From an uncultured Methanomicrobiales archaeon (GTDB lineage Archaea; Halobacteriota; Methanomicrobia; Methanomicrobiales; Methanospirillaceae), in the NCBI GenBank assembly GCA_963758915.1, contig CAVWXH010000003.1:128001-192000 (forward strand): a stretch of DNA of 64,000 nucleotides. Direction: 5' to 3'. Positions 32,658-54,470 of the stretch are shown piece after piece. Positions within the stretch are counted from its first letter, which is position 1. Each line of letters starts with the position of its first letter. The notes beneath the pieces are model-generated. The model was not told the origin of the DNA. It searched no databases and was given only the letters and a program-made list of their open reading frames with translations. The position numbers and the translations under genes are program-made.

Positions 32658-33608
32658 TTAAGCACCGCCTCTCCAAATTCCTTTGTCCCAGACAGATCCT
32701 CCAAGGTCCCGGGTCTTTATCCCCTTTGAAAATACCGTCTGAATCGCACATTCGATCGCATCCGACCCTGGATTATCCCCTGCATGCCGGAGCAGGAGCG
32801 CTGCACTCCGCAATGCTGCAACAGGGTTTGCCAGATTCCGGCCCGCAATATCAGGAGCACTGCCGTGGACCGGTTCAAAAAATGCATGGCGTTCCCCGAT
32901 GTTGGCACTGGGCAGCATACCAAGGCCACCGACGAGATACGCAGCAACATCCGACAGGATGTCCCCGAACATGTTCGTCGTCACGATAACATGGTACGAT
33001 GCCGGGTGGAGGAGCACATCCAGGCACAACGCATCAATGAGCCGGTCATTGCAATTCACCCCGGCAACCGACGCTTCGTGGAGGCATATGTCCCTGAAGA
33101 ATACGTCCGATTTCATCACGTTGGCTTTGTGGCCGATGGTCAGGGTCCTGCTCCCTGCAAGGTTGCAGGCAAACCGGGCGATACGCTCACATTCGTGGCG
33201 GGTAATGACCCGGAGCGTCGTCGCCCTGTCCACCCCCACCTCTTCGATCCCCGAGTAAAGACCTTCGATGTTCTCCCGCACAATGGTGATGTCAAACCCG
33301 TTGCCCTTCACCGGCCGTACATTGGCAAAGAGGTCGAGATCTTTTCGTATCCGAAGCAGCACGCTGCGGTAATCGGGAGCAGAAGGTGTTGTTATCGCAC
33401 CAAACAGGATGGCATCTGCCGATTTGAGCAATTCAAAGTCATCATCTCCCATCGCCTCGCCCGTCCGCTCCCACCGCTCGTACCCGACTTCCACCGGGAA
33501 TAATTCATACTCAGGGTGGAGCAGGGATAGCACATCCCTTGCAACGGGTATTACTTCCTTCCCGATACCGTCCCCGCATACGATTGCAACACTTCTGACG
33601 TTCGCCAT
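32658..33608 (-). CDS. aksF: Homoisocitrate/isopropylmalate dehydrogenase family protein (AksF)
   Basis: GDGIGKEV, LDLFANVRP, VRENIEGLY, HKANVMK, NMFGDILSD and FEPVHGSAPDIAG motifs; located in the aks operon. The 3' end is probably frameshifted. Confidence 0.85.
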   Translation of the reverse strand: MANVRSVAIVCGDGIGKEVIPVARDVLSLLHPEYELFPVEVGYERWERTGEAMGDDDFELLKSADAILFGAITTPSAPDYRSVLLRIRKDLDLFANVRPVKGNGFDITIVRENIEGLYSGIEEVGVDRATTLRVITRHECERIARFACNLAGSRTLTIGHKANVMKSDVFFRDICLHEASVAGVNCNDRLIDALCLDVLLHPASYHVIVTTNMFGDILSDVAAYLVGGLGMLPSANIGERHAFFEPVHGSAPDIAGRNLANPVAALRSAALLLRHAGDNPGSDAIECAIQTVFSKGIKTRDLGGSVWDKGIWRGGA

Positions 33609-34409
33609 TATTTCGATCTCCAGCCGTGTTACGAGGCCGTCGATGGCCTTGAGAATATCACGCGGCGTTGCACCCCAGTGGACAACCGCCCCGAATTTTC
33701 CATTATACCTGCCAATCCCGCCCCGTTCCTTCTGGCAGCACCGGGTGATGAACGGTTCTTCTGTGACAGTTCCGATGGGACAGATGTCGATCAGGGTAAA
33801 ATCATCCCCGTAACATTCCTGGTATATCCCGGAACTGGCCCTGCAGCCTGCTACCGTTTCACCACCAACCATCGGGTCTGCATCAAGAGTCCTCGGGAAA
33901 CCTGCCGCCCTGCAGGGGTGGACATCGGCACCGGTCTGCGAAATATCGGTGATATGGTGCACGAACCTGATATCAAGTTCCCCGAACAGCCCGATCGCCT
34001 CCAGCTCCTTTACCCGGTCTGACAGGACCGGGAGCGGGGGCTTCACGTCGTAGACATGAACGGTCAGCAGTGTTGCAGGGTCAGGGTCGAGCACGAATGT
34101 CACGTGTTCGTCGTGCCCGGAAAAGATAGTGCAGCGTCGCCCTGATTCCGTTGCAAGCCGGATGAGCCCGGCCCGGTTGGCGATATTGACCTGTTCCGGG
34201 TACCAGGTGACCTCATCCGCGGACGCTATCACTTCCTCGGCGATCACCTTCCTCATCAGCCCTTTTTCGGCGGGATCGGTTGTCACCCGGACGATCTCAT
34301 GGCCGGTACCAGTCTTGTGGATGAGGTACTGCGAGAGAAAATACACGCGTCTCCCGCACGGTTCCGTATCCGCATAGCCGATGTCTTTGTATTCACGGGG
34401 GAAGATCAT
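33608..34409 (-). CDS. Conserved Cys-rich hypothetical protein (possible metal/Fe-S binding)
   Basis: VYFLSQYL, HPC, AGC, DICP, RCC and VHWGA motifs. Removing one base at ~33625 gives ...TRWRSK* with a TAATG overlap onto aksF. Confidence 0.75.
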
Positions 34410-34879
34410 GGCTTCTTTGACCTCCAGAGGGGAACAAGCCCGCCTGCAAGAAGGATCTCCTTCATCCTTGCAGACAGGGGCCGGATTGGAGCACTGGAGC
34501 CTCCGCAGGAAACAACCCCTTTGTCAAGGTCAATGATCACCTCGTCGCCATCGGCACAGTGGCATTCCCCTTCAACAACCGGGAGTCCCACGTTTATGGC
34601 GTTACGGAAGAATATCCGGGAGAAGGAGGGGGCGACAACAGCCTGCAGCCCTGCTTCTTTAAGGGCAACGGCGGCCTGTTCGCGTGAAGACCCGCACCCG
34701 AAATTCCTGCCTGCAACAATGACCGATCCTTTGAGCCTGGCCCCGAGCGACGGGTCGAGGTCTTCGAATACATGTTCGACCCAGACCGTCCGGTCCTTTG
34801 TCCGGAGATACCTCCCGGCGATGATGACGTCGGTGTCGATATCGGGCCCAAGGCAGATCGCCTTCCCTTCAATGTGCAT
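34406..34879 (-). CDS. aksE: Homoaconitase small subunit (LeuD/HacB)
   Basis: DIDTDVII.GRYLRT (the YLRT loop is typical of homoaconitases), NFGCGSSREQA and RIFFRNAIN motifs. Confidence 0.88.
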   Translation of the reverse strand: MHIEGKAICLGPDIDTDVIIAGRYLRTKDRTVWVEHVFEDLDPSLGARLKGSVIVAGRNFGCGSSREQAAVALKEAGLQAVVAPSFSRIFFRNAINVGLPVVEGECHCADGDEVIIDLDKGVVSCGGSSAPIRPLSARMKEILLAGGLVPLWRSKKP

Positions 34880-34882
34880 GAT

Positions 34883-36091
34883 TCACGCCTCCGGGACGGT
34901 CAGGACGCCGGTCAGGGCGCTTGCTGCCGCCGTTGCAACCGAGGCGAGATACACGCTGCCACCAATACCCATCCGGTTCGTAAAATTACGGTTTGCCGTC
35001 GAGAGGCAGACTTCACCTTCCCCGATTACCCCCATATGTGCCCCGAGACAGGGGCCGCAGCCGGGTGTGCCGATCGTGCAGCCTGACGAGATAATGGTCG
35101 AGAGGACACCCGTATCGGCTGCTTTGCGGAGGACTTCCGCCGAGGACGGGATTACGATGGTCCTCACGTTCACCTTCTTACCCCGGACGATTGAAGCAAA
35201 ACGTTGTAAATCTTCAAAACGCCCGTTTGTGCAGGTACCGACAAACACCTGGTCAAGGGGCAGCCCTTCAAGCGATTCAACGGGTCTTGCCGAATCGACC
35301 CGTGGCGGCACGGCAACCACGGGGACAAGGTCCGACAAGTCAATCGTTATCTCTTTTCCATACGAGCAGTGCTCAGGTACCTGGTTTTCCACCCGGTGGC
35401 CGAACTGCAGGAGGTACTGGCGGGTCACGTCATCGGCATAAAAGAGGCCGGTTTTTGCACCGGCTTCAGTTGAAAGATTTGAAATGGTGAGCCGGCCTTC
35501 CATGGAGAGCGATTTCGTCCCGTCCCCGACATACTCTAATGCCTGGTAGGACGCTCCCTCCATGCCGAGCTGGGAAATAACCGTAAGGGCCAGGTCTTTC
35601 GCCTCAACCGGATAGTTCAATGTCCCTGACAGGTGGATGCCGATTGTTTCGGGAACACGGAACCACGTAGAACCCGATGCCCAGATGGCAGCCATATCGG
35701 TCGCCCCTACACCTGTTGCAAACGCACCGAATGCACCAAGGGTACAGGTGTGGGAATCGGCCCCGACCACGACCTCCCCGGGGAGCACCTCCCCTTCACC
35801 CATGAGCTGGTGACAGACACCGCCCCCGATATCGGAGAAATGGATCCCGTGTGACCTTGCAAACTCCCTGAGCTCCTTCTGGAGCGTCGCGGTAGTGCTG
35901 TTGTTTGCCGGGACGATGTGGTCGAAGAGGATATACAGTCGTTCCGGGTGCGCCGGGCCCGGGCAACCCATCTCCTTCCAGGCTTCGAGGGTGAGTACAC
36001 CGGTACCGTCATGCACGTATGCCCGGTCAACCTGTACATCGACATAGTCCCCGGCCCCTGCACCGAGGATCCGTTCGGAAAGCGTCCTCAT
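34883..36091 (-). CDS. aksD: Homoaconitase large subunit (LeuC/HacA)
   Basis: HDGT, DHIVP, GVCHQ, GADSHTCT, GTCTNGR, PGCGPCLG and STANRNF motifs. Confidence 0.9.
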   Translation of the reverse strand: MRTLSERILGAGAGDYVDVQVDRAYVHDGTGVLTLEAWKEMGCPGPAHPERLYILFDHIVPANNSTTATLQKELREFARSHGIHFSDIGGGVCHQLMGEGEVLPGEVVVGADSHTCTLGAFGAFATGVGATDMAAIWASGSTWFRVPETIGIHLSGTLNYPVEAKDLALTVISQLGMEGASYQALEYVGDGTKSLSMEGRLTISNLSTEAGAKTGLFYADDVTRQYLLQFGHRVENQVPEHCSYGKEITIDLSDLVPVVAVPPRVDSARPVESLEGLPLDQVFVGTCTNGRFEDLQRFASIVRGKKVNVRTIVIPSSAEVLRKAADTGVLSTIISSGCTIGTPGCGPCLGAHMGVIGEGEVCLSTANRNFTNRMGIGGSVYLASVATAAASALTGVLTVPEA

Positions 36092-37221
36092 GCCAGTGAC
36101 CCCTCTCCCTGGACTCTCTTAATCAGTTCAAGAAGGCGTTCGGGAGTAACCACCGTTTTGTGCTCCCCTTCAGTTTTCACCAGTTCAAGCACACGGCATA
36201 CCTGGCCTTTCGAAAGCTGGAACCCGAGTGCAGATACCACGTATTCGAGCGCCTTCGACCCGGTATGTTTCCCGAGAATGAATTTACGCTCGCCACCGAC
36301 CATTTCCGGGGAGAAATATTCGTACGTTTCCGGGTCCTGGAGAATTGCAGCGATATGGATGCCACTCTCGTGGGAAAACGCATGGGCACCCACGACCGGC
36401 TGGGTCCTTGCCACCGGAATATTGGATGCTTTTTCAACCAGTTTTGAGAGGTTCTGCAGGTGGGTGAGGTCATACCGTTCTACCCCTGCTTTCATGCGGA
36501 GGGCTACGAGAACAGACTCAAGGGGAGCGTTCCCCGCCCGTTCGCCAATGCCATTGACCGTTGTATGGAGCTGGAACGCCCCGGCCTCTGCAGCAGTAAT
36601 CGTGTTCGCCGCAGCGAAACCCATGTCGTTATGGCAGTGTGCACAGACCGGGACACGGACGGTTGATACGAGGTCCCCCATTACCTCGTACATCTCAAGC
36701 GGGGTGAGGCACCCGACCGTATCCGCAAAAGACAGGAGGTGGGCACCGTGGTCTTCACCCTGGCGAAATACTTCCTTTAAGAAACCACGGTCTGTCCGGG
36801 AGGCATCTTCAGCGGCAAACCGGACTGCAATCCCATGGTCGTGGACGAATTCAACGATACCAAGTGCCGCCGAAAGGACCTCCTCCCTTGGTTTTTTGTA
36901 TTTATGCCTGATATGGAGGTCAGAAGTTGCGATGAAAATACTGACCAGGTCTACATCGCAGTCTATCGCACACTCGGCGTCCTCTTTCCGGGCCCTTGCA
37001 AGGCAACAGACCCGTGCATCAAGGCCCATCGCTGCGATCTCGGTCACGCACTTTTTTTCTTCTGCTGATACGATGGGAAACCCGGCCTCGATTACTTCGA
37101 CCCCGACATCGTCGAGGACGCGGGCAATCGACTTCTTTTCATCGCAGGTGAATGATACACCCGGCGTCTGTTCTCCATCCCGGAGCGTCACATCGCAGAT
37201 TTCAACATTCCACGGTTTCAT
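36088..37221 (-). CDS. aksA: Homocitrate synthase (AksA; no LeuA regulatory domain)
   Basis: DVTLRDGEQTPG, HCHNDMG, GIGERAGN, HESGIH and LGKHTG motifs; ~377 aa. Confidence 0.88.
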   Translation of the reverse strand: MKPWNVEICDVTLRDGEQTPGVSFTCDEKKSIARVLDDVGVEVIEAGFPIVSAEEKKCVTEIAAMGLDARVCCLARARKEDAECAIDCDVDLVSIFIATSDLHIRHKYKKPREEVLSAALGIVEFVHDHGIAVRFAAEDASRTDRGFLKEVFRQGEDHGAHLLSFADTVGCLTPLEMYEVMGDLVSTVRVPVCAHCHNDMGFAAANTITAAEAGAFQLHTTVNGIGERAGNAPLESVLVALRMKAGVERYDLTHLQNLSKLVEKASNIPVARTQPVVGAHAFSHESGIHIAAILQDPETYEYFSPEMVGGERKFILGKHTGSKALEYVVSALGFQLSKGQVCRVLELVKTEGEHKTVVTPERLLELIKRVQGEGSLA

Positions 37222-38499
37222 GGTGTCTCCCTTCCGGACAGTTCCCTTCAATAATCACAACTACCGGCGATTCCCGGCGGACGAGAGTTTCCCGGAGGCG
37301 GGCTTCATCATCAGCCCGGCAGATTACGGGGTTGGCCCAGGCAATATAGGGGAGGATATCGTAGGCCTGCTGCCCACCGGTCATCCCCATGCAGTTGTTT
37401 TTCATTATTATGCACAGCAACGGGGTTTTTTTCTCAAACACGTCGATCAACGCAGGGAGCCCGGAATGAAGCAGTGCATAATCGCCGGTAAGTGCAACGC
37501 CCGTGCTTTTCGCAGCCACCCCGATTGAAGACCCCATGCCATAACTGACAAGGCTGGTTTTAAACGGCGGGTTCATGCAGAGGACGCAGCACCCTGCATC
37601 ACAGGTGACCAGAAATCCCCCGTTCGTCCAGGATCTTTATTGCCAGGATAAAGGGGCAGTCCTTGCAGAATGACCGGTAAAAACCACGGTCTTCCCTTCG
37701 CTCCGGTTCCGTGTATGCCGGGGGGTACCATCCTCCGGTGTTCCCTGACAAACGGTCTCCCAAGTTCTTTTACCTCTTTTAACCTGCCGAGCCCGCCGTA
37801 GGAGGATACACGGTAATTATTCTGGATATCTCCCCGGGAAGGGACTGGTTTATCCCCGGCCCCTGCAGCACCAACGAGGGCGGTTGTCCCGTTCATCCGG
37901 TTCAGTGGCGATTTTTCAGACCACTCACACATCGGTCCGAGCAGGTTTCTCGCCCGTTCAACCCTCCCTTTCATGGTGAGGTGTAACGGGGCAATCGTCC
38001 CGGTTTTTCCCTTTCTTTCGGCGTTCCCGGGGGTTACTTCTGCTTCGAGAAGGTCCGGGGTAAGGCGGAGGATCACGATCCTTGAAAATGATTCCGACGC
38101 CCTGAATGCCTCTTCTACGGCTTCGTGGATGTTATCCGGGCCGGGTTCTATTACCGGTACCTCGGCGAGTTCCCCGTAATATCTCGAGTCCTGGGCATTC
38201 TGGGACCCCTCGGCCACCGGGTCATCCCCGGCTACAATGACCACACCGGCGATAAGTCCCTGGGTAGTCGCCTCGACAAACGGGTCTGCACAGGCATTCA
38301 ACCCGACATTTTTGAGGATTACTGCGGCTCTCCTGCCGGAAAGCGAATCGCCAAGGGCATATTCTACTGCCACCTTCTCGTTTATGACCGATTCAGCACC
38401 TGTTTTTTCCAGCACCCCGCTGACAGGAAAACCGGGTACCCCGTAAAACCGGTCTGCGGCAGCAAGGAGTGCCTTCGTTATTGCATCTTCACCTTTCAT
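37202..38499 (-). CDS. ThDP-dependent enzyme, IorA-like but truncated (frameshifts at ~37600-37720)
   Basis: GVPGFP, INEKVAVEYALG and GDDP..GSQNAQDSR; the repaired junction reads FCKDCP...CDAGC; ThDP motif GDYALLHSG...KNN. No C-terminal ferredoxin domain. Confidence 0.8.
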
Positions 38500-39464
38500 A
38501 GCGGCTCTCCCGGGACGAGGTCACAACCCCTGCACCGGACACACATGGTCAGGGCGTTCCGGGGGTCCAGTCCTTCATCCTGTAATGCTTTTTCATGATA
38601 TCCGGCAATCAGGAGCATCCGTTCAGCACCCGGCCTGCTGGAGCCGGAAAATCCTGCAATCGGGTTCAATGGCCTGATAACAGGAATTACCCCCATTGTT
38701 GTGAGTTCCCTGATACATGCATCCATCTCTTCATCCGTCTCTCCAAGGCCGAGAATTACGTTTGAAAACACGTGGCCGCGTCCGAATAACTCTACTGACT
38801 TCTGAAGGACCCGGATAATGAGATCACGGTCATGGCCCGGGCATAATGAGGCAAACAATTCCGGAGTGGCGCATTCAAGGTTGAACTTTACTTCCTTTAC
38901 CCCGAGTCCGTGCAGGCGGCCGGGTGTTTGTTCTGTCGGGTAAATTGAGACCCCGATCGGGAGACCGAACACTGCCAGGTCACGGACAACCTCGCAGACA
39001 TACTCTTCTTCCTCGTAAATGTCGGAATATACACCGCTTGTTATGGAGATTGCATCAATCCGGTCTTTTATTCCATCGACCATGGCATGGATTTCCTCGA
39101 TTGATTTTCTCCGCTTTGGCAGGCGCGGGACATTGCAGTAACGGCAATTGAAGATACAGCCGCTGCTGACGGTAATATAGGCCTGTTCCGGGCAGTGCAG
39201 GCCAACCGGGTCAAGCCGGCCGGGCAGCACAATTTCACCATAACGGAGTGTTGCAGCCCCTTCACCTGCATGGATAATTTCAACGGGGCTTGTCTCTGAA
39301 CGTGCAAACCGCACCCTCATACCATCGGATGAAAAGAAGACAGACCCTTCTCCCCCTGCGCCCGGACCTGCGGATGAACTCGAAAGGTAAGGAGTCGCAT
39401 CTTTTCCGGTGAGCCGTGCTTTTCCAACGGCAAGGAGGGCTGCTTTTAATTCCTGTCCGTGCAT
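38496..39464 (-). CDS. Radical SAM protein (biotin-synthase-related) with extra Cys ligands
   Basis: GCIFNCRYC radical SAM motif, N-terminal HCP and C-terminal CVRCRGCD. Starts MHGQELK. Confidence 0.85.
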   Translation of the reverse strand: MHGQELKAALLAVGKARLTGKDATPYLSSSSAGPGAGGEGSVFFSSDGMRVRFARSETSPVEIIHAGEGAATLRYGEIVLPGRLDPVGLHCPEQAYITVSSGCIFNCRYCNVPRLPKRRKSIEEIHAMVDGIKDRIDAISITSGVYSDIYEEEEYVCEVVRDLAVFGLPIGVSIYPTEQTPGRLHGLGVKEVKFNLECATPELFASLCPGHDRDLIIRVLQKSVELFGRGHVFSNVILGLGETDEEMDACIRELTTMGVIPVIRPLNPIAGFSGSSRPGAERMLLIAGYHEKALQDEGLDPRNALTMCVRCRGCDLVPGEPL

Positions 39465-40340
39465 AAGGTCAGGGCCTCCTCGTATCTTCGTGTAAAACGG
39501 AATTGCCGCTACTGCACCAATGATCCCACGACCATTCCTCACGATCCGCAGGTTGATATCATCGATATCCAGGATCAATCCCTGCGTCACTTCGCCACGT
39601 TTCACCTTCCACGCGAATTCCAGGAGGTTTGAGGGGTCAAACCCCGTGTATACCGCCATGCCGGTATCTTCAGAAAGGGTATAGCGGTCCAGCAGTCCTG
39701 CAAAATGATCGACCAGGCGGGCAGGGTCCGATGATGCAAATTCGGCAACAATGCTGACACAGTTTTTTGTCCGGTACGGGACAGGGTACAACTGCACAAT
39801 CGTATGCGACAGGTAGCGGGACTGCTGGTCCTCAACAGCCCTCGCAATATTATGGACGAGTGTCCAGGTTGCCCCCTGTTCAGGTGTATCGGTATCGTCC
39901 ACGCCAATCAGGACACGCTGTCGCCTTGGCAGCCAGACTGTTGAACCGGCACGTTTTCCACCCCCGGAAGGGTCATTTGTACTTCGCGTAACACCCTGTG
40001 CATAGGAACGGCATATGGACGCACCGACACCACCGCCGCCAAGCCCTACGTAAGATACCCGGATTTCATCCTCATCAACGGAAACAGCACTTATTCCGGC
40101 CGGGAAATGTGAGCCCTCAAGTGCAAGGTCCGACTCCCCCGGGCGCAGCATGTACCGCATGGTCGGTCCGATATTCCTGGCAGAACGGACAAGCGGGCTC
40201 TGTGCATAATGGTGTTGTGCCCACATCGCACCCCCGGTACAATCGAAAAATTCGATCAGTTCGACACGTTCGCCGGCGGAATCCGCTACCGCGACAATCT
40301 GCGGGTACCGTATGATATACGGTTCAGGAAGGTTCACCAT
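39446..40340 (-). CDS. mmp11: Methanogenesis marker protein 11 (TiaS kinase-domain-like), paralogue 2
   Basis: IGVDDTDTPEQGATW, QLYPVPYRTKNC and GRGIIGAVAA motifs. Removing one A at ~39488 gives ...FYTRYEEALTLCTDRN*. Confidence 0.82.
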
Positions 40341-41283
40341 AGAGACCTGCCGCTTCGATGCCCCTGTTGGCCCATAATACAGACCCTAATGCACCAATTC
40401 TGCCCTTTCTTCCTGCAGTGTCGATAAACCTGATCCCGGCAGATGCCGCAATATCCTCGGCATCCTTCAGGCTTACGATCTCGGTCTTTATCCTCCGGCA
40501 GGCACCGTTCATTATTTTCGGGAATTCAATACCCCGGTAGTAGGCAATACCCGTGTCGTCACTGAAAGAAAACTCCTCGATATAATCGCGGACATAGGCA
40601 AGAAGTGCATCAACCGACCCGGGTCTGACGGCAAAATTCAACGCAGACCCCACGCAGTTGGTTGTTTTTTCCGGGACCCGCGGGTTGAGCTGGATCAGCC
40701 TCATATTAAGAAATTCCACGCCTGGTACCGGGCACTGTTCACCGCATTTCAGGGCAAGGACCCAGGTGGCTCCTTTTTCAGATGTGTCAGTGTCATCGAT
40801 CCCGATGGTGACCTTCTCGTATAGCGGTGAAAAAATACGTACCCGGTTCACCCTCGCACCGCCGACTACCAGGTCCTCTTCAGTCGGGTATTCAGCCCGG
40901 GTCACACCCGGTGCCTGCGGAAGGCAGGCAGCAATACCAAGACCGGCACCGGCAATACCTGCCCAGGATGTGACGACCTCGTCACCCTGCACCTCGACAC
41001 CTTCGAGGGCCTGGCCCCCGATATTCTCCCCGGCAGCCCCGAAATTCGCCTGAAATGAGCCGATTCGTGCCAGCATCCTCATTTCAGTGCCTTCAACACG
41101 GGCAGAGACTGTGGCCCCTTTTGCACGGATGCGGTTCATCGCGTCCCACTCGATAGGTCCCCTCGCATGGCACTGCTCGATGATCTCTGCAAGGCCGGCA
41201 CCCTTGTCCACCATCACGAGAAACCGCCGGGAAAAGAGTGATCCATACTTCGTTTTTATTTCTTCGGGCTTTTTGACAATCAT
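40324..41283 (-). CDS. mmp11: Methanogenesis marker protein 11 (TiaS kinase-domain-like), paralogue 1
   Basis: IGIDDTDTSEKGATW, QLNPRVPEKTTNC and GRIGALG motifs. Confidence 0.82.
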   Translation of the reverse strand: MIVKKPEEIKTKYGSLFSRRFLVMVDKGAGLAEIIEQCHARGPIEWDAMNRIRAKGATVSARVEGTEMRMLARIGSFQANFGAAGENIGGQALEGVEVQGDEVVTSWAGIAGAGLGIAACLPQAPGVTRAEYPTEEDLVVGGARVNRVRIFSPLYEKVTIGIDDTDTSEKGATWVLALKCGEQCPVPGVEFLNMRLIQLNPRVPEKTTNCVGSALNFAVRPGSVDALLAYVRDYIEEFSFSDDTGIAYYRGIEFPKIMNGACRRIKTEIVSLKDAEDIAASAGIRFIDTAGRKGRIGALGSVLWANRGIEAAGLYGEPS

Positions 41284-41380: not shown

Positions 41381-42274
41381 TTAAAGGATTTTGTGGAGTT
41401 CGAACTTGAACGGCCCGAGCGTGCCACCATAGTTACCGGCGCTGATGAATTTTACGCCTTTTACCATGCAGGCGGCACGGATACCTGCTGCCATTGCCTC
41501 TGCAACTGCTGCTTCGGATACACCGTCAATGACGATTTCGAACACGCCATTAATGCCGTCCGGGATCTTGCTGTCCGGGACCTTGCTCTTCAGGGATGGA
41601 CAGTACAGTTCGTTTGTGCTGGCATTCATGAATTTATACTTCTTGCTGCCTACTTTCGAGCCGCTTCCGACAATCCCACCCGGGAATGACGTGATAACGC
41701 CACAGACTTCATTGACCGCAGCCACGGCGGCCTGTGCACCGACCAGTGCTGACATGGTGCTGTCACCCATGATAAAGAAATTGCCACCTGCAACACCCTT
41801 CACGACGCCAATCTCTTCTTCTGTCAGGAAATCTCCACCCATCAGGGGAATTGCCCATACACTCCGGTCTCCGACCTTGGTCTGGTATTCGTAGCCGTCA
41901 CCAAAGAAATGGAGTTTCATCGGGAGTTTTTCTTCGCAGTCAGTGATACCGTTAAACGCTGCGGTGGTTGGTGCAGTAAGCACACACTCTGCGATACGCT
42001 CAATCAGCTGCTCTTTTAATTTTTTCTTGCTCGGGTGGACAATAAGAATACCATATCCAGGCCTGCCGTCAGGGGTCTGCTGCGGGGGGACATACTGGTC
42101 AATACCTGCTTCTGCCGGACATGCGATAACCGATGTCCCGAACCCGGTCGCTTCGACTGCTGAACTGTATGCGAGTTCCTTCGTTGCAGCGGTAATGATT
42201 ACAGAGCTGACCCATGCGGGAAACGCTTCTGCAAACGTGTTGTCAATCTTTACACCGTTAATTTCCATATTCAA
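41381..42274 (-). CDS. ftr: Formylmethanofuran:H4MPT N-formyltransferase
   Basis: DNTFAEAF, ATGFGTSVI.CPAEAG, TPDGRPG, GVAGGNF, GSKVGS and SAGNYGG.LG motifs. Confidence 0.97.
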   Translation of the reverse strand: MNMEINGVKIDNTFAEAFPAWVSSVIITAATKELAYSSAVEATGFGTSVIACPAEAGIDQYVPPQQTPDGRPGYGILIVHPSKKKLKEQLIERIAECVLTAPTTAAFNGITDCEEKLPMKLHFFGDGYEYQTKVGDRSVWAIPLMGGDFLTEEEIGVVKGVAGGNFFIMGDSTMSALVGAQAAVAAVNEVCGVITSFPGGIVGSGSKVGSKKYKFMNASTNELYCPSLKSKVPDSKIPDGINGVFEIVIDGVSEAAVAEAMAAGIRAACMVKGVKFISAGNYGGTLGPFKFELHKIL

Positions 42275-42780
42275 ATACCTCGGACAAAGAATGTACCATG
42301 GCCGTGATAGAATAAATTTTCTAAGTGGTTTTCAAATTGTTGACAGGAGGACGGTAGTACATACGTGGCGGAAGTTACTCACGGATGGACGGGATAAGAT
42401 AACGGGTAATCCTTCGAACATGCAGATTACCACTATTTCTCCCGATAAATCAGCCCAGGATAACCCCGAAATAATCACAAATTATGCTGTAATTTTTGTT
42501 TTTACGCGATATTTCATCTGTAAATACCTCATCACAAAAAATCGAGTCGCATCCAATCATAAACCATATAATGCTATACACTAAAGGGCATAGTTTGCCA
42601 CCTGCCCGGGTTACAGGAAACGAAAGAAGTGAGAGAAACGCCGGGATGCCCCGGTTCGTCGAAGTATCACCGGGGTCTGGCTAAAGCCAGGGATTCCACA
42701 GAACCTGGAGTACCAGCCAACTATTATTACGGGCGACGGTGACCAGTGTCCTGTCACAATTATTTCCGTGGATTGTGAAG

Positions 42781-43692
42781 ATGGCAGGAGATCAGAAGTT
42801 ACCGGGAGACCCTTATGAAGCAGGCGACAGTAATGGACTGGCACATCACCTGATTGCCATCTTTGCCGTGGCAATTGTTATCCTGATAATTGCAGGAGGA
42901 ATTCTTCTCAGCGAGGCAGGGAAAAATCCGCCGCCGGTTCCGGAAAAAACTACCGGGGAACGTGATGTCCTTTACCAGGTATCAACCATTGATGCACTGG
43001 TACTGGGTGCATATGAGGGGGTGCAACCTGCGGGCGAAGTGGAAAAACATGGGAATTTCGGCATCGGAACATTCGATGCACTTGACGGGGAGATGATTGC
43101 CGTTGATGGCCGGTACTACCAGGTAACATCAGATGGTGCAGTCCGTGAGGTTGACCCCTCGGTGATGGTGCCGTTTGCAACCGTTACATTTTTTGACAAC
43201 GATTCGACTATTACCGTAAGCGGGAGCAGGAATTTGTCCACCTTCACAAACGGGATTGATAAAGGACTCCCTTCGAAAAACCTGATCTATGCGGTCAGGG
43301 CTGACGCTACGTTCCCTGAAATGGTCGTCCGGGCCATTCCAAGGCAGGAAAAACCATATCCTCCGCTTACCGAGGCAGCCACCCACCAGGTGGTTACCAG
43401 GCTGGAGAATACATCAGGGACCATTGTGGGGTTCTACCTTCCTGCATTTATGAAAGGGGTCAATATGCCCGGGTACCACCTCCACTATATTTCATCAGAC
43501 AGGAAAAGCGGAGGACATATCCTTGATTTTACCCCGCCTGATACCCCGGTCATGGTGATAATTGATCAGACCCCGGATTTTTCCATGTCTGCCCCCACAA
43601 CAGGTGATTTCGCAGAGATGAACTTTTCCGGGGATGTTTCAGCAGGATCTCATCCAGGTCGAACGTTAAGCGGAAATGAAGTCCCGGGATAG
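42781..43692 (+). CDS. Acetolactate decarboxylase family protein with an N-terminal TM anchor
   Basis: YQVSTIDAL..G.YEG, GNFGIGTF..LDGEMI, PFATVTFF and Zn ligands GYHLHY...GGHIL. Confidence 0.9.
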   Translation: MAGDQKLPGDPYEAGDSNGLAHHLIAIFAVAIVILIIAGGILLSEAGKNPPPVPEKTTGERDVLYQVSTIDALVLGAYEGVQPAGEVEKHGNFGIGTFDALDGEMIAVDGRYYQVTSDGAVREVDPSVMVPFATVTFFDNDSTITVSGSRNLSTFTNGIDKGLPSKNLIYAVRADATFPEMVVRAIPRQEKPYPPLTEAATHQVVTRLENTSGTIVGFYLPAFMKGVNMPGYHLHYISSDRKSGGHILDFTPPDTPVMVIIDQTPDFSMSAPTTGDFAEMNFSGDVSAGSHPGRTLSGNEVPG

Positions 43693-46405: not shown

Positions 46406-47320
46406 ATGGAAGCAAAACATAAATACGCATTTTATCTCGGCTGCATTGCCCCCAACCGGTACCCCGGTTCCGAAGCGGCTGCAATCAAGACAAGTAAGAA
46501 ACTCGGTATCGAACTTGTGCCCCTTAAGGGTGCAAGCTGCTGTCCTGCACCGGGTGCATTCGGTTCCATTGACTTAAATGTCTGGTATGCAATGGCAGCA
46601 CGTAACCTCGTGCTCGCCGAGCAGATGAAAATGGACATTGCCCTGCTTTGCAATGGGTGTTACAAGTCAATCTGGGAAGTAAACCACAAGCTGAAACACC
46701 ACGATGAACTCCGTGACGGGGTAAACGAGGTGCTGAAAACGATCGACATGGAATACAAAGGCTCGATCAATGTCTACCACCTTGCAGAACTCCTCTATGA
46801 CAAGAATATCGTCGGTGTTGACAAGATCAGGGACAGCGTGACCAACCCCCTGACGGGTGCACGGATTGCAGTCCACTATGGATGTCACCTCGTAAAGCCA
46901 AGGAAAGACCGTGAATTTGAAGCGACGGAGTTACTGAATACCGAAGCACCGACCTGGATGGAAGAACTGGTTGCAGCCCTTGGTGCAACTCCGGTAGAAT
47001 ACCGCCAGAAGATGCAGTGCTGCGGTGCCGGTGGCGGTGTACGGGGCTACGATATTGTCCATGCTCTCGATATCGCCAACGAGAAACTGATCAACCTGCA
47101 GGAAGTAAAGGTTGATGCCCTTACCGATATCTGCCCGTTCTGTCAGCTCCAGTTTGACCGTGGCCAGATTGAAATCGAAGAGAAGTTCGGGGTTAAATAC
47201 AACCTTCCTGTACTTCACTTCTGTGAACTGCTTGGACTGGCACAGGGAATGAGCCCGCAGGACCTTGCACTTGATCTCCATGCGATCAGCTGCGAACCGT
47301 TCCTGCAGAAGGTGCTGTGA
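46406..47320 (+). CDS. hdrB: Heterodisulfide reductase subunit B
   Basis: LGCIAPNRYPG, SCCPAPG, CNGC, HYGCH, CCGAGGG and CPFCQLQFD motifs. Confidence 0.96.
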   Translation: MEAKHKYAFYLGCIAPNRYPGSEAAAIKTSKKLGIELVPLKGASCCPAPGAFGSIDLNVWYAMAARNLVLAEQMKMDIALLCNGCYKSIWEVNHKLKHHDELRDGVNEVLKTIDMEYKGSINVYHLAELLYDKNIVGVDKIRDSVTNPLTGARIAVHYGCHLVKPRKDREFEATELLNTEAPTWMEELVAALGATPVEYRQKMQCCGAGGGVRGYDIVHALDIANEKLINLQEVKVDALTDICPFCQLQFDRGQIEIEEKFGVKYNLPVLHFCELLGLAQGMSPQDLALDLHAISCEPFLQKVL

Positions 47321-47334
47321 AGGAGGTACTGAAC

Positions 47335-49449
47335 ATGGCTGAAAGAAAAACCAAGAAAGAAACAGCGTCCAAGAAAGAGACCACCGCTGCAGTAAAGAAG
47401 CAGGCACCAGCGAAAGCCGCAATCGGAGAACAACCCGAAGGCAAGAAAGAGGCACGGATTGGGGTTTTCATCTGCCACTGTGGTACAAACATTGCCGGTT
47501 CAATGGATATCAACGCAGTACAGGAATATGCAAAAACCATTCCGAATGTCGCCTATGTTGACAACTACAAGTACATGTGTTCGATGCCCGGGCAGGCTGT
47601 GATTGATAAGGCAATCCATGATAACAAGCTCACCGGTGTCGTCGTCGCTGCATGTTCACCACGTCTCCACGAACCAACGTTCAGGACGGCAACCAAGGAA
47701 GGTGGCCTCAACCCGTTCAAGTTCGAGATGGCAAACATCCGCGAGCAGAACTCGTGGGTGCACATGCATGACCAGGAAGGGGCAACAGACAAAGCAAAGG
47801 ACGCAATCCGCATTGCCGTTGCAAAGGCATCGCTCCTTGAAGACCTCTTCCCGAAGAGTGTTCCCGTTGAGAGGGCCGCAATGGTCGTCGGTGCAGGTGT
47901 TGCAGGAATGCAGGCCGCTCTCGACCTGGCAAACGCCGGTATCAAGACCTACCTGATCGAGAAGACCCCGACCATTGGTGGTCGCATGTCCCAGCTCGAC
48001 AAGACGTTCCCGACCCTCGACTGTTCACAGTGTATCCTTACACCGAAAATGGTGGATGTCGGAAGGAGCGAGAATATCGAGCTGATGACGTATTGCGATG
48101 TTGAATCCGTAGAAGGGTACATCGGTAACTTCGATGTCACCATCAGGAAGAAAGCCCGTGGTGTCCTTACTCCCAAAGAAGCAGAGGCAAAGGGTATTGT
48201 CGGTGGTGGCTGCAACGGTTGTGGTGACTGTGAGACTGCATGCCCGGTCGTCCAGCCAAACACCTTTGAAGAAGGAATGAAGCCACGAAAGGCAATCTAT
48301 ATCCAGCACCCGCAGGTCGTCCCCCTGATTTACACCATTGACAAAGAGTCCTGTATCAAGTGTGGAATCTGTGTCACGGTATGCGGTAATGAAAAGAAGG
48401 CTATCGACCTCGACCAGGAAGATGAATTCGTCAAGGTAAAGGTAGGTACAGCAATTCTTGCAACAGGGTATGATATCTTCCCAATCGAGAACAAGACCGA
48501 GTGGGGCTACAAGAGGTTCGAAAACGTCATTACCAGCCTCGAGTTCGAACGCCTGATCTGTGCATCCGGTCCGACCGGCGGCCACATGGTCCGCCCGAGT
48601 GACGGGGTCGCACCAAAGAAGGTCGCATTCCTCCTCTGTGCAGGTTCAAGAGATAATACCGGGATCGGCAAGCCCTATTGTTCAAGGTTCTGCTGCATGT
48701 ATTCACTGAAACATGCCCACCAGCTCATTGAAAAGATGCCCGGTTGCCAGCCCTATATCTTCTACATGGATATCCGGTCCTTCGGTAAGATGTACGAAGA
48801 GTTCTATTACCGTATCCAGGACGAGGGTGCAAAGTTCATCCGTGGCCGTGTCTCGAACATTCTCGAAGACCCGGTATCAAAGAACCTCATGGTGTTTGCA
48901 GATGACACCCTGCTTGACCGGCCGATGAAACTCGAAGTAGACCTTGTCGTGCTTGCTGCAGCAGTACAGCCCGCAGCCGACACGAACCGGACCAGGAAAC
49001 TCTTCGGTGTATCCTGTTCCATGGACGGATGGCTCCTTGAAGCACACCCGAAACTGAACCCATGCGGTACCACCACAGCCGGTGTTTTCCTTGCAGGGGC
49101 CTGCCAGGGACCAAAGGATATCCCTGACACGGTTGCTTCAGCAGAAGGCGCTGCATCAGCAGCAAGTATCCCGATCCATACCGGACACGTTGAACTTGAA
49201 CCGTACTTCGCCCAGTGTATCGATGAGAAATGCGCAGGATGCGGTATGTGTGTCAATTTATGCCCGTACACCGCACTTGCACTCGTAGAAAAAGATGGAA
49301 GAAAAGTCATGCAGGTTACAGAAGCGAAATGTAAAGGCTGCGGTACCTGCGGTGGATTCTGCCCTGGTGGCGCAATCTGGATGAACCACTTTGCAACACC
49401 ACAGATTATTGCTCAGATTGATGCATTCCTCCTCGGAGGCGAGCAGTAA
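47335..49449 (+). CDS. hdrA: Heterodisulfide reductase subunit A
   Basis: IGVFICHCG.NIA, ACSPRLHE, ANIREQ, QLDKTFPTLDC, YCSRFCCMY and inserted plus C-terminal ferredoxin motifs. Lys-rich N-terminal extension. Confidence 0.97.
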   Translation: MAERKTKKETASKKETTAAVKKQAPAKAAIGEQPEGKKEARIGVFICHCGTNIAGSMDINAVQEYAKTIPNVAYVDNYKYMCSMPGQAVIDKAIHDNKLTGVVVAACSPRLHEPTFRTATKEGGLNPFKFEMANIREQNSWVHMHDQEGATDKAKDAIRIAVAKASLLEDLFPKSVPVERAAMVVGAGVAGMQAALDLANAGIKTYLIEKTPTIGGRMSQLDKTFPTLDCSQCILTPKMVDVGRSENIELMTYCDVESVEGYIGNFDVTIRKKARGVLTPKEAEAKGIVGGGCNGCGDCETACPVVQPNTFEEGMKPRKAIYIQHPQVVPLIYTIDKESCIKCGICVTVCGNEKKAIDLDQEDEFVKVKVGTAILATGYDIFPIENKTEWGYKRFENVITSLEFERLICASGPTGGHMVRPSDGVAPKKVAFLLCAGSRDNTGIGKPYCSRFCCMYSLKHAHQLIEKMPGCQPYIFYMDIRSFGKMYEEFYYRIQDEGAKFIRGRVSNILEDPVSKNLMVFADDTLLDRPMKLEVDLVVLAAAVQPAADTNRTRKLFGVSCSMDGWLLEAHPKLNPCGTTTAGVFLAGACQGPKDIPDTVASAEGAASAASIPIHTGHVELEPYFAQCIDEKCAGCGMCVNLCPYTALALVEKDGRKVMQVTEAKCKGCGTCGGFCPGGAIWMNHFATPQIIAQIDAFLLGGEQ

Positions 49450-49901
49450 TGGCAGGACATGAAGCTCCCCCGAAACGCGAGGAAGGCGCATTTAAGCCCA
49501 AGATCATCGGGATCCTCTGCAACTGGTGTTCGTATGCCGGTGCAGATCTCGCCGGTGGTGGCCGTATCCAGTACCCGCCTGATGTCCGGATTGTCCGTGT
49601 CATGTGCACGGGACGTGTGGACCCGCTCTTCATCATGAAGGCATTCACAGACGGTGCAGACGGGGTATTGATTTCAGGCTGCCACTTCGGTGACTGCCAC
49701 TACCTCGAAGGGAACTATAAGGCTGCGAAGAGGTTGTTCCTTGTCAAGAACCTGTTGAAAAACATCGGTCTTGAGGACAAGAGGTTAAGAATGACCTTTG
49801 TTTCTGCATCAGAAGGAGCAAAATGGGGTAAGGTTATCACTGACGTCGTAAAGACAGTGGAAGAACTTGGCCCAAGCCCACTGGCAGAACTGACGAAATA
49901 A
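49449..49901 (+). CDS. mvhD: [2Fe-2S] subunit MvhD
   Basis: CNWCSYAGADLAG, RVMCTGR, GCHFGDCHY and SASEG motifs. Confidence 0.95.
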   Translation: MAGHEAPPKREEGAFKPKIIGILCNWCSYAGADLAGGGRIQYPPDVRIVRVMCTGRVDPLFIMKAFTDGADGVLISGCHFGDCHYLEGNYKAAKRLFLVKNLLKNIGLEDKRLRMTFVSASEGAKWGKVITDVVKTVEELGPSPLAELTK

Positions 49902-50018
49902 TAGCATAACAATTCCGGCTCAAGGGTCCGGCAGGAACTGGTGACAGAGGGGGGAAAGACCTCTGCCGCAAAAGTCTGCCTTATAATTGAGCTGGATAAT
50001 AAAATAAGAGGAAAAAAT

Positions 50019-50420
50019 ATGGCAAAGATTACCCTGAACCTTATTTCCGGCCGGACTATATCCCAGGGTGTGGCGATGGAGGGAGGAAAAGAGAAAGACC
50101 TCTATCGCAAAGCCTGCGGGATTATTGAGATGGACGATTCTGACTTCAAGAAGCTCGGGTGCTGGAAAAATACCAATGTCCGCGTGACCAGCCCGTATGG
50201 CACCGTCATTGTAAAAGCACAGGAGACCTCCCAGGGACCACACCCTGGTGTTGGTTTTATCCCCATGGGACCCTGGGCCAACCTGATCGTTAACCCGAAC
50301 ACGTACTCGACCGGTATGCCCACATTCAAGGGAATACCCGTTGAGGTTGAAGTCGCAATGGACCAGCCTATCCTTCTCGGCGTTGAACTTGTACAGAAAG
50401 CATGCAGGGGTGAATCCTGA
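50019..50420 (+). CDS. fwdD: Formylmethanofuran dehydrogenase subunit D
   Basis: SGRTISQG, FIPMGPWAN and TGMPTFKG motifs. Confidence 0.93.
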   Translation: MAKITLNLISGRTISQGVAMEGGKEKDLYRKACGIIEMDDSDFKKLGCWKNTNVRVTSPYGTVIVKAQETSQGPHPGVGFIPMGPWANLIVNPNTYSTGMPTFKGIPVEVEVAMDQPILLGVELVQKACRGES

Positions 50421-51736
50421 TGACAAAGACAGTTACTGATGTTGTGTGCCCATTCTGCGGTACCCTCTGTGACGATCTCGAGGTCGCAGTTACCGATGAC
50501 GGTAAACAGATCCTCGACGTGTACAATGCCTGTGCAATTGGTGCAGAAAAATTCCTGCATTCACAGGCAAAAGACCGGATCACCAGGCCGAGACTCCAGC
50601 AGCCGGACGGGACCTGGAAAGAGATCAGCTACGACGAGGCGGCAGATTACACGGCAAAAATGCTTGCCGGTGCAAAGAAACCGCTGATGTACGGGTGGAG
50701 CTCGGTCAATTGTGAAGCCCAGAGCGTTGGAAACGAGATCGCAGAGATGTGCCGTGCATGTGTTGATAATACGGCAGCAGTCTGCCACGGCACCACCCTG
50801 ATTGCAGTGCAGGACATAGGCCTGCCTACCTGCACCCTTGGTGAAGTAAAGAACCGGGCTGACACCATTATCTTCTGGGGATGCAACCCCTGTCACGCCC
50901 ACCCACGCCACATGTCCCGGTACTCGATATTCCCACGTGGATTCTTCACCGGAAAAGGACATAAAAGCCGTAAACTGGTGGTAGTTGACCCCCGTGTCAC
51001 CGACACCGCCAAGATGGCAGATATTCACCTCCAGGTCACCCAGGGACAGGACTACGAACTCCTCAACGCCTTCCGTGTTGCATTCAAAAACGAATGGCTG
51101 CCGGATGTCGTAGCAGGTATACCAAAAGAGAAGATCATCGAGGCTGCAAATATCATGAAGGCAGGCCGGTTCGGGATCATCTTCTTCGGTATGGGTGTTA
51201 CCCAGTCGCTTGGAAAGAACCACAATATCGATGAGGCAATCGCGGTCACAAAAGACCTCAACGAATACACGAAATTCTCCATCATGCCAATGCGTGGTCA
51301 CTACAATGTGACAGGCTCCGGAGAGGTCCTCGCATGGCAGTTCGGGTACCCGTATTCCGTTGACCTTACCCGCGGGTTCCCGCGGTATAACCCGGGCGAC
51401 ACGAGCTCTATCGACCTCCTTACCCGTGGTGAAATTGATGCAGCATTTGTTATCGGAAGCGATCCGGGAGCACATTTCCCAATCAGTGCCGTCAAGAAGA
51501 TTTCACAGGTCAATTCAGTATGCATCGATCCCCACATCACACCGACCAGCGGTGTCTCAAAACTTCATGTGCCGGTTGCATTCAATGGTGTTGAGACCGG
51601 TGGAAACGCATACCGCATGGATAACGTCCCAATCGACTGCCGTAAGGTCGTGGATCCTCCGGAGGGCATGCTCACCGATGAAGAGTTCCTGACAATGGTC
51701 CGCGATCGTGTGAAGAAACTCAAGGGGGTCGCATAA
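50420..51736 (+). CDS. fwdB: Formylmethanofuran dehydrogenase subunit B (Cys-type)
   Basis: CPFCGTLCDD, VCHG (Cys, not Sec), HPRHMSRY, MRGHYNV and YRMDNV motifs. Confidence 0.96.
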   Translation: MTKTVTDVVCPFCGTLCDDLEVAVTDDGKQILDVYNACAIGAEKFLHSQAKDRITRPRLQQPDGTWKEISYDEAADYTAKMLAGAKKPLMYGWSSVNCEAQSVGNEIAEMCRACVDNTAAVCHGTTLIAVQDIGLPTCTLGEVKNRADTIIFWGCNPCHAHPRHMSRYSIFPRGFFTGKGHKSRKLVVVDPRVTDTAKMADIHLQVTQGQDYELLNAFRVAFKNEWLPDVVAGIPKEKIIEAANIMKAGRFGIIFFGMGVTQSLGKNHNIDEAIAVTKDLNEYTKFSIMPMRGHYNVTGSGEVLAWQFGYPYSVDLTRGFPRYNPGDTSSIDLLTRGEIDAAFVIGSDPGAHFPISAVKKISQVNSVCIDPHITPTSGVSKLHVPVAFNGVETGGNAYRMDNVPIDCRKVVDPPEGMLTDEEFLTMVRDRVKKLKGVA

Positions 51737-51738
51737 TT

Positions 51739-53450
51739 ATGGCAGAATATATCATTAAAAACGGATTTGTATTTGACCCCGTCCAGGGTATCAAGGGCGA
51801 TAAGTCCGATGTTGCCATCAAGGATGGTAAAATCGTCAAGGACGTCTCAAAATCTGCAAAGGTCATCGATGCCGCAGGAAAGACGGTAATGGCCGGTGCA
51901 GTGGAGATCCACGCCCATATCGCAGGCCCGAAGGTGAACCTCGGCCGGATCTACCGTCCGGAAGACAAACTCTTCACCTGTACTGCAACCAAGGGAATTG
52001 AACGGACAGGCTCCGGGAACTCGATCCCGAGCACCTTCAAGACAGGCTACGAATATGCCAAGATGGGTTACACGACGGCATGGAGGCAGCAATGCCACCC
52101 ATGTTCTCACGCCACGTGCATGAGGAGATCCGGGACACCCCGATCATTGACGAGGGTGCATTCCCTGTCTTCGGCAACAACTGGTTCGTGATGGAGTACC
52201 TGAAAAACAACGAGGTAGAGAACACCGCTGCGTATATCGCCTGGCTGCTCCGTGCAACCAAGGGATACGCCGTCAAGGTCGTCAACCCCGGTGGCACCGA
52301 AGCATGGGGATGGGGACTGAACTGTCTCTCGATCCATGACCCGGTACCCGTACTTCGATATCACCCCGGCAGAAATTGTGAAGGGGCTTATCGAGGCAAA
52401 CGAGTACCTCGGTCTCCCGCACTCGATGCACATCCACCCGAATAACCTCGGGAACCCCGGATGTTACCAGACAACCCTGGACACCCTGAACCTCGCAGAC
52501 GGCTACAAGGCAAAGAACAAGTTCGGTCGTGAGCAGGTCATGCACATTACCCACATGCAGTTCCATTCCTACGGTGGAGAGAACTGGGGTAATTTCGAGT
52601 CCAAGGCCACAGAGATCATGAACCACGTGAACAGTCACAAGAACCTCACGATTGACACGGGTAATGTTACTCTCGACGAGACCACCACCATGACAGCCGA
52701 CGGTCCGTTCGAGCACCACCTGACAGGTCTCAACCACCTGAAGTGGGCAAACTGTGACGTGGAACTCGAGACTGCAGCCGGTGTCGTGCCGTATATCTAC
52801 AGCCCTGATATCAAGGTCTGCGCAATCCAGTGGTCAATCGGTCTTGAACTTGCACTCCTCGCAAAAGACCCGATGCGTTGTTTCATTACGACTGATCACC
52901 CGAATGCAGGACCATTCACCCGGTACCCCCGTGTCTTCAAGTGGCTGATGTCAGAGAAGGCCCGTAACGAGCGGCTCAACACCTTCAAGAATGCTGACAA
53001 GGTAATCGCTGCATCAACACTGTCAGCCTTGACCGTGAGATCACGCTCTACGAGCTTGCCCAGATGACCCGTGCAGGGCCGGCAAAGTCCCTCGGACTTG
53101 CCAGTATCTGTGGTGGCTTAAAACCAGGCATGGACGCAGACGTTGCAGTGTATGATTTCAACCCGGACAAGCCACTAGCTGACCCCGAAATGATTGAGAC
53201 TGCATTCTCACGTGCGGCATATGTCTTCAAGAGTGGTGTGCAGGTTGTCACTCATGGTGACATCGTGAGCACCGGTAACAAGCGTACCCTCTGGGTCGAT
53301 GCCAAGGTAAAGGACAACCCGCAGGTAATGCGTGATATCAGGGAGAAATTCCTGAAGTATTATAGCATGACCCAGGCAAACTACGAATCACTCGGGCACC
53401 ACTTCGTCCCGAATCCATTTGCATTAGAGGTTGATGCAACCCAGGTGTAG
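51739..53450 (+). CDS. fwdA: Formylmethanofuran dehydrogenase subunit A (frameshifts at ~52075, ~52345 and ~53030)
   Basis: Collinear pieces: HAHIAG, YAKMGYT/EAAMPP, KVVNPGG, HIHPNNLG.PG, TDHPN.GPF and MTRAGPAK. Confidence 0.93.
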
Positions 53451-53459
53451 GTGTAGAAC

Positions 53460-54261: not shown

Positions 54262-54301
54262 TCTTTTTCACCAAAAGAGCGCACTGCAAATTCATACAAT
54301 T

Positions 54302-54470
54302 GAAGTATTAACATAATACTTCGTAATACTATTTTTACTTTTATTCATACCAACTTTATTGATGATTCCGAATATGGGGGTAATATTTGAATATTCCCCC
54401 ATTATAAGTAATTATTTTAATAGTATTATATTAAAATTTAAAAATAAAAAACACAACACTTATATTAAGA
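54302..54470 (+). promoter_or_regulatory. AT-rich mcr promoter region with two inverted repeats and a TATA box
   Basis: GAAGTATTA-aca-TAATACTTC (54302-54322), ATGGGGG-t-AATATT-tg-AATATT-CCCCCAT (54374-54402), and TTATATTAA at ~54460. Confidence 0.6.

Follow-up and report, generated by a model that had tools for sequence, protein, structure and literature searches.

TiaS, the tRNA agmatidine synthetase, phosphorylates the C2 oxygen of C34, and its Thr18 is the residue that we take to be autophosphorylated. A kinase-type domain of the same sort, without tRNA-binding domains, is found in a 252-residue protein of Pyrococcus furiosus known from structural genomics (PDB 3u02). Both are compared here with the products of two adjacent genes in a 64,000 nt stretch of DNA (the window hereafter) from an uncultured Methanomicrobiales archaeon (GCA_963758915.1; contig CAVWXH010000003.1, positions 128,001-192,000, forward strand). 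These genes encode a canonical Mmp11 protein (Mmp11-A) and a diverged paralogue (Mmp11-B), called A and B below, and we tentatively propose that the two proteins are ATP-dependent small-molecule enzymes of late coenzyme B synthesis, with A as the core enzyme and B as its paired paralogue. To our knowledge, the genes for 2-oxosuberate decarboxylation, thiolation, threonine coupling and phosphorylation have been unassigned since the labelling studies. The chain-building steps of the pathway have been assigned to enzymes (PMC3087415, section 14.5). A literature search with coverage of few subscription journals returned no paper on the function of Mmp11, TIGR03280, DUF1743 or DUF7714, and none on the late coenzyme B enzymes, for which it gave mentions of the pathway only.

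Both genes are on the minus strand, with B as the upstream and A as the downstream copy, and the start of A overlaps the end of B by 17 nt, the two reading frames overlapping. Against the NCBIfam model TIGR03280 (Mmp11; 292 positions, cut-off 255.8 bits), A scores 330.6 bits over residues 12-285 of the 614-amino acid (aa) open reading frame (ORF) that contains it (333 bits in the genome search), and B scores 200.1 bits over residues 20-311, which is below the cut-off but covers almost the whole model, as is the case for A. The Pfam domain TiaS_TCKD (cut-off 27 bits) was found in both, with 48.5 bits in A and 43.3 bits in B. Identity between the two proteins is 28% over 281 residues (E 5e-26), and their likeness is far beyond chance, since their profiles align along 315 columns at 100% probability (hhalign). 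The initial proposal, made from the DNA letters and ORF translations (the sequence-only reading), that these are tandem diverged Mmp11 paralogues is thus borne out. Although B is a full-length homologue, we treat it as a sister subfamily, without equivalog status, because it falls below the TIGR03280 cut-off and within a separate clade. The model itself is graded a 'hypothetical equivalog' by NCBIfam, and the family goes by the JGI name 'methanogenesis imperfect marker protein 11'. A and B share one architecture, in which a conserved N-terminal domain (N-domain) of ~140 residues is followed by a TiaS-type kinase domain, giving about 300 aa.

The kinase domain is where the resemblance to TiaS lies. 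AlphaFold models of both proteins are confident, with a predicted local distance difference test (pLDDT) value of 94.3 for A and 92.4 for B, and the part of A from residue 140 to 291 fits TiaS (3amt_A) with a Z of 20.7 and a root-mean-square deviation of 2.1 Å over 151 residues; Foldseek matches A to TiaS at E 4.2e-8. HMMER aligned residues 157-244 of B without gaps to residues 2-88 of TiaS chain 4rvz_Z, placing D163, D164, D166 and T173 of B opposite TiaS D8, D9, D11 and T18, the equivalents of which in A are D148, D149, D151 and T158. Conservation at these DDxD and Thr18-equivalent positions is complete or reaches at least 90% among the 79 A-type and 37 B-type sequences on which residue conservation was judged. 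Homology to the TiaS kinase domain, as previously suggested, is therefore upheld by sequence, by fold and by the aligned DDxD/Thr18 residues. The motifs that had been listed for both proteins hold in part: IG[IV]DDTD fits both as written, whereas QLxP..P.[KR]TxNC matches B only, A being one residue shorter there, and G.G.IGA matches A only, B being one residue longer there. In B the motifs read IGIDDTDT (160), GATW (171), QLNPRVPEKTTNC (198) and GRKGRIGA (291).

While the kinase fold, IGxDDTD and the Thr18 equivalent are common to A, B and TiaS (PDB 3amt, 3amu, 3au7, 4rvz, 5xob), A and B differ from TiaS in carrying the extra N-domain, in sitting amid metabolic genes and in lacking the tRNA-binding OB/zinc-ribbon domains. 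The last of these had already been remarked upon and is confirmed, with scores of 19.7 and 39.9 bits against the TiaS model NF040849, far below its cut-off of 600 bits, and with both sequences ending after the kinase/FLD-like part. A separate TiaS-like gene of 404 aa is present on contig C10 of the same genome (394 bits, NF040849 positions 5-413 of 422). The P. furiosus protein 3u02 matches residues 140-291 of A with a Z of 15.0 and B at E 1.9e-6, and resembles them in having a kinase-type domain free of tRNA-binding domains, but unlike A and B it has no Mmp11 N-domain. Members of the Mmp11 family should not be annotated as tRNA agmatidine synthetase.

The N-domain has a signature of its own in each protein, CxGGAxWxxxHY in A and CxxRGxxEWDAMNRxR in B, and each is conserved within the respective clade. 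A structure search for the fold of this domain (VIA-align, 48,161 chains) recognised none, giving only small alpha/beta matches to residues 9-67, with Z of 6.7 at most. A model of the A+B complex, built from our own alignments (79 rows for A, 37 for B), reached ipSAE values of 0.69, 0.75 and 0.81, with a median of 0.75, while none of three controls exceeded 0.00. The runs share at least 81% of contacts and the partner pLDDT is at least 83. The mark that these values reach is attained by 116 of 157 solved complexes and by 2 of 215 mismatched pairs, counts that are rough in this case given the use of our own alignments. In the modelled interface, loop 33-44 of the A N-domain (CxGGAxW) meets segments 166-179, 193-198 and 206-211 of the B kinase site, and B 39-46 and A 159-163, 178-183 and 193-195 are also taken in. 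These contacts between N-domain loop and kinase site suggest a head-to-tail dimer with composite sites. Modelling of the pair had been put forward as a check in the sequence-only reading, and the score mark was indeed reached, but paralogues can pass such a test by likeness.

A connection with coenzyme B had been proposed from the kinase domain, and it is now strongly backed by gene neighbourhood, which had not been used at that point. Six loci were fetched from the order, representing five other families and one congener, and in all six the gene order is Ftr-[B]-A-rSAM-TPP-AksA-HacA-HacB-DUF7714-AksF, where rSAM is a radical-SAM gene and TPP a thiamine pyrophosphate (TPP) enzyme; one of them (L021) is without B. 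The genes of the Aks pathway (AksA, HacAB/AksDE, AksF), which leads to the coenzyme B precursor 2-oxosuberate, form one operon with A and B in the window (Table 1), and this linkage recurs across phyla. Chain building is the task of the Aks enzymes; A and B have folds unrelated to theirs and would act later, after decarboxylation and thiolation. In this genome the Aks genes of the operon are a second set, the other being a Leu-type HacA/HacB/AksF cluster on contig C16. The IOR-alpha-like TPP enzyme encoded between the radical-SAM gene and AksA is a candidate, by inference, for the 2-oxosuberate decarboxylase. The mcr, fwd and hdr operons are within 20 kb, on the opposite strand.

Table 1. Features of the Mmp11 locus, in window coordinates.
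Feature	Position	Strand	Basis or remark
Ftr, formylmethanofuran:tetrahydromethanopterin (H4MPT) formyltransferase	41381-42274	minus	97 nt upstream of B; neighbour conserved across the order
Mmp11-B, diverged paralogue, 319 aa	40324-41283	minus	N-domain and TiaS-type kinase domain
Mmp11-A, canonical Mmp11, first ~292 codons of the 614-aa ORF	39465-40340	minus	Profile match, models
One extra base, approximate site	~39488	minus	Alignment with same-genus loci, missing in 5/5
Radical-SAM gene	38496-39464	minus	Canonical CxxxCxxC; weak LipS2, BioB and variant_rSAM similarity; separate 322-aa gene in relatives
IOR-alpha-like TPP enzyme	37202-38499	minus	One ~430-aa gene in relatives (431 aa in a same-genus genome)
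AksA-like homocitrate/isopropylmalate synthase homologue	36088-37251	minus	Profile matches
HacA-like homoaconitase large subunit	34883-36091	minus	Second genome copy; the other in the Leu-type set, contig C16
HacB-like homoaconitase small subunit	34406-34879	minus	Profile match
DUF7714 (residues 1-262) and AksF-like dehydrogenase (274-572), one ORF here	32658-34409	minus	Two genes in relatives

Mmp11 is found in similar company in other archaea. We took 80 named archaeal loci, in 77 of which an Mmp11 ORF is recognisable, and 67 of these 77 have an Aks, TPP-enzyme, radical-SAM, Mmp4 or DUF7714 gene at most four genes away (by class: Aks 33, TPP 26, radical-SAM 24, Mmp4 11, DUF7714 1). Outside the order, the neighbour of A in 13 of 14 A-type loci is an IOR-like TPP enzyme (7 loci) or a radical-SAM gene (6 loci), and one locus of family f14 reads A-TPP-AksA-HacA-HacB-AksF-DUF7714. 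Records of Methanobacterium and Methanosphaera have the arrangement HacA-HacB-AksF-(class V aminotransferase)-RibH-Mmp11, Methanomethylicia have Mmp4-HacA-HacB-TPP-Mmp11 and Methanofastidiosa have Mmp11-AksA-TPP. In records of the latter two groups a classical three-domain TPP enzyme replaces the IOR-like one (L055 6386-7960; L102 10076-11668). Such a substitution by an analogous enzyme points to a decarboxylation step that depends on TPP within one pathway; both enzyme types are candidates for the 2-oxosuberate decarboxylase. With Aks, TPP-enzyme, radical-SAM, Mmp4 and DUF7714 genes as recurring neighbours, a role for Mmp11 in a late coenzyme B step is favoured; it is well supported by context, if unproven.

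Some further observations concern these neighbourhoods. The DUF7714 part of the joined ORF in the window (33624-34409, minus; 294 bits) has weak similarity, at a sub-threshold 79.9 bits, to the XcbA/ComA-type family, which belongs to coenzyme M synthesis, and DUF7714 again accompanies the operon in f14 and in one Hydrothermarchaeum record. A homologue of alpha-acetolactate decarboxylase (42739-43692, plus; 264 bits) is located in the window between the ftr and the fwd/hdr clusters and has an N-terminal extension of ~75 residues containing a hydrophobic stretch. Canonical Mmp11 adjoins Mmp4 in several phyla (L043-L046, L063, Methanomethylicia). Matches to Mmp11 also occur on three contigs titled as bacterial metagenome-assembled genomes (L090, L097 and L098; Acidimicrobiales, Anoxymicrobiaceae and Actinomycetota), two of them with a radical-SAM neighbour.

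The spread of the two types was followed in the window's genome with 40 relatives (the order sample, 41 genomes), in a phylum sample of 201 genomes searched for Mmp11 and for McrA, and in 121 genomes around one Methanobacterium record. A canonical match is present in 39 of the 41 order genomes (287-347 bits) and a B-type match in 29 (174-212 bits), and in each of these 29 genomes B immediately precedes A, both on one strand. In the phylum sample, B-type genes were found in two f8 genomes and in all ten f14 genomes. A quick IQ-TREE phylogeny of 92 rows (113 sequences reduced at 88% identity) separates a canonical clade of 80 rows from a B clade of nine rows, both with a support value (SH-aLRT) of 98; the latter holds the window's B, three relatives from the order, two f14 genes, two f8 genes and one Methanodesulfokora record. 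B belongs to an old, separate clade. The sequence-only reading had asked whether two stable Mmp11 clades co-occur: two stable clades are indeed found together, but in some lineages only.

A third type, C, falls outside the canonical and B clades, with long-branch warnings for C and for the short outgroup. It has a match elsewhere in the genome in 39 of the 41 order genomes (87-131 bits). The copy in the window's genome is outside the window (G000:C3:265167-265988; L003 1438-2562), measures 374 aa, scores 118 bits and overlaps the end of a homoserine dehydrogenase gene. The same succession of homoserine dehydrogenase and C is seen in 12 of the 16 C loci examined, including loci from families without canonical Mmp11, and this linkage indicates that the family has diversified onto other contexts. 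No classical ThrB scores above its cut-off in the genome (best 30.8 bits), and C was considered as a homoserine kinase, but that gap is already filled by a TIGR02535 'proposed homoserine kinase' (C3:125913-127055, 494.8 bits).

Taking the homology, fold, motifs, operon, clades and modelled interface together, we infer, as the best explanation, the substrates, the chemistry and an actual dimer as follows. A and B would serve the late part of N-7-mercaptoheptanoyl-O-phospho-L-threonine (coenzyme B) biosynthesis. A would be the core enzyme, single copy in most MCR-bearing archaea, and by analogy to TiaS would transfer phosphate from ATP to an oxygen, either that of the 7-mercaptoheptanoate carboxylate, preparing it for attack by the amine of threonine, or the threonine hydroxyl, or both. 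B would be an old, lineage-restricted paralogue with its catalytic residues kept and its N-domain signature changed, probably co-translated with A in this organism and forming with it a pseudo-symmetric dimer in which each N-domain loop reaches the kinase site of the partner. In a stricter version, which we consider improbable, an obligate A-B heterodimer with two non-equivalent composite sites (the A N-domain with the B kinase site, and the B N-domain with the A kinase site) would perform both of the final ATP-dependent steps, in one of which the 7-mercaptoheptanoate carboxylate is activated to form the amide with threonine, while in the other the threonine hydroxyl is phosphorylated. These two steps would correspond to the acceptors of the TiaS kinase domain, which are of two types, a carbonyl oxygen and a Thr hydroxyl, and organisms with a single copy would carry out both with a homodimer. 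The earlier suggestion that the paralogues divide the ligase and kinase tasks does not stand as a general solution: B is restricted to certain lineages, and such a division is unlikely because most methanogens are single-copy and the conserved residues of A are the same with or without B. A division of tasks between A and B within this lineage is possible.

Several observations weigh against the proposed role of the pair, some of them regarding B and others the tie to MCR. B was not found in 12 of the 41 order genomes, two of which also lack A; a single Mmp11 copy and no B is the state of 27 of the 28 f7 genomes; and the Methanobacterium-side sample has no B, with exactly one Mmp11 match in each of its 121 genomes. 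In all ten f14 genomes A and B are unlinked, B lying far from A or on another contig; in this family B precedes Mmp4 instead. B is therefore missing from many holders of A and unlinked in f14, which implies that A works without B and that B need not sit with A. Given that B is a paralogue of A, the interface seen in the model could simply reflect an ancestral homodimer. A somewhat less probable alternative is that A alone is the coenzyme B enzyme, probably as a homodimer, and that B, though an enzyme of the same type, works independently on another small molecule and owes its position to a lineage-specific operon arrangement. The B clade, made up of genes from order, f14 and f8 genomes and one Korarchaeon record, would agree with this, as would the distinct N-domain signatures, the identity of A's invariant residues in genomes with and without B, and the diversification of the family represented by C. 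The neighbours of B also vary, with Mmp4/MtxX in f14 (L030, L036), where it follows B, and in L075, and Mmp8 and an A2-like ABC ATPase downstream, next to Ftr, in G193. (The B-type genes outside the order include L030 8530-9348, L036 10636-11436 and L037 8741-9565.) Against independence of B stands the position of all 29 B genes of the order immediately upstream of A, with frames overlapping here, and this constant adjacency and the overlap speak for pairing. The complex model passes its controls, and every genome of the phylum sample with a clear B (180-215 bits) has A, G124 having only a long-branch B-like gene.

The remaining difficulties concern MCR. Mmp11 and McrA co-occur in most families of the phylum sample. 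An exception is f15, where 21 of 23 genomes have McrA and one of 23 has Mmp11, with no Mmp11 match at E<=1e-15 in any of its 21 McrA-positive genomes, and the smaller families f12, f20 and f27 tend the same way. Conversely, canonical Mmp11 occurs without an McrA match in six f8 genomes (G079, G087, G093, G098, G197, G216), in G212 (f30) and in G088 (f17). Such a pattern would agree with a Mmp11/radical-SAM/Mmp4 module that makes or matures another product, for instance a sulfur-containing or 2-oxoacid-derived cofactor, the Aks linkage then reflecting a common precursor and not the end steps of coenzyme B, an explanation to which we assign little probability. It gains from the presence of a radical-SAM gene next to canonical Mmp11 in the McrA-less genomes of f8, f30 and f17, from the retention of Mmp4 in all five such genomes tested, and from the Mmp11-radical-SAM pairs in named Geoglobus, Ferroglobus and Archaeoglobaceae records. 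A paper on MtxX (PMC12978539) notes that Archaeoglobales lacking MCR retain some of the marker genes, and describes the functions of the markers as unresolved. A further point in its favour is a suggestion in PMC12068725, bearing on the thiolation step, that MMP16 and L-ASST likely function in coenzyme B biosynthesis, so that some of the late steps may be carried out by different enzymes. Against another cofactor stand the Aks linkage, found in no fewer than five distantly related lineages (Methanomicrobiales-type, Methanocella, Methanobacteriaceae, Methanomethylicia and Methanofastidiosa/Thermoplasmata records), and the position of Mmp11 directly upstream of McrB in an uncultured archaeon (L042 7998-10582). 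We also know of no use of 2-oxosuberate in these organisms other than coenzyme B. The copy number of HacA-family genes was tried as a proxy for the Aks pathway and set aside; it does not discriminate, as there are two copies in f15 and in MCR-less f8 genomes alike. At two f15 HacA loci (L122, L123) no Mmp11, TPP or radical-SAM neighbour was recognised by the profiles used, and these loci thus gave no substitute enzyme. A role for A and B like that of TiaS, in the modification of a macromolecule (tRNA or protein), is very improbable. The kinase fold and catalytic motif that they share with TiaS, and the NCBI records that name many B homologues 'tRNA(Ile2) 2-agmatinylcytidine synthetase', are outweighed by the missing tRNA-binding domains, the separate full-length TiaS-like gene and the metabolic nature of the neighbouring genes.

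The form in which A appears in the window requires comment. The sequence-only reading had the two genes spanning 39446 to 41283, and two genes are present, but in this assembly no stop codon ends A at 39446, which is where A ends in relatives. The frame of A continues instead into a Radical_SAM domain (Pfam; residues 390-544 of the ORF at 38496-40340). The extra base listed in Table 1 sits 25 nt before the radical-SAM ATG and moves the last codons of A into the radical-SAM frame, whereas in same-genus genomes A and the radical-SAM gene stand apart as genes of 297 aa and 322 aa that overlap. The relatives of the 614-aa ORF that are 337-1075 aa long number 51, and a single one of them is a fused radical-SAM/TCKD chain, so that the fusion is not a common natural form; this lone protein (P0121, ENA, 492 aa) has Radical_SAM and TiaS_TCKD domains, with 53% identity over 74% of the 614-aa ORF. 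The apparent fusion is a +1 indel in an indel-rich assembly. Other broken or mis-joined genes span 47317-55632 on the plus strand and 32658-40340 on the minus strand: FwdA lies in three ORFs (51739-53450, plus), FwdC in two (53460-54261, plus), HdrA is split (47317-49901, plus) and McrB is truncated (54607-55632, plus; 341 of 433 model positions). The TPP enzyme gene has two frameshifts. As FwdA, FwdC, McrB and HdrA are indispensable, indel errors are most likely frequent in this assembly. Among the sequencing runs searched for this DNA, the best contained 0.10 of the sampled words, and no RNA run was listed.

The A, B and C clades, the restricted spread of B, the modelled A-B interface and the linkage of C to homoserine dehydrogenase are new here. 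Coenzyme B is a cofactor required for all biological methane formation, and A and B are concrete proteins to assay for its late steps. If the proposed role is true, the fold of the TiaS-type kinase domain would have a new use, with a small molecule as substrate, and the pair would possibly offer a methanogen-specific target for lowering methane emission.

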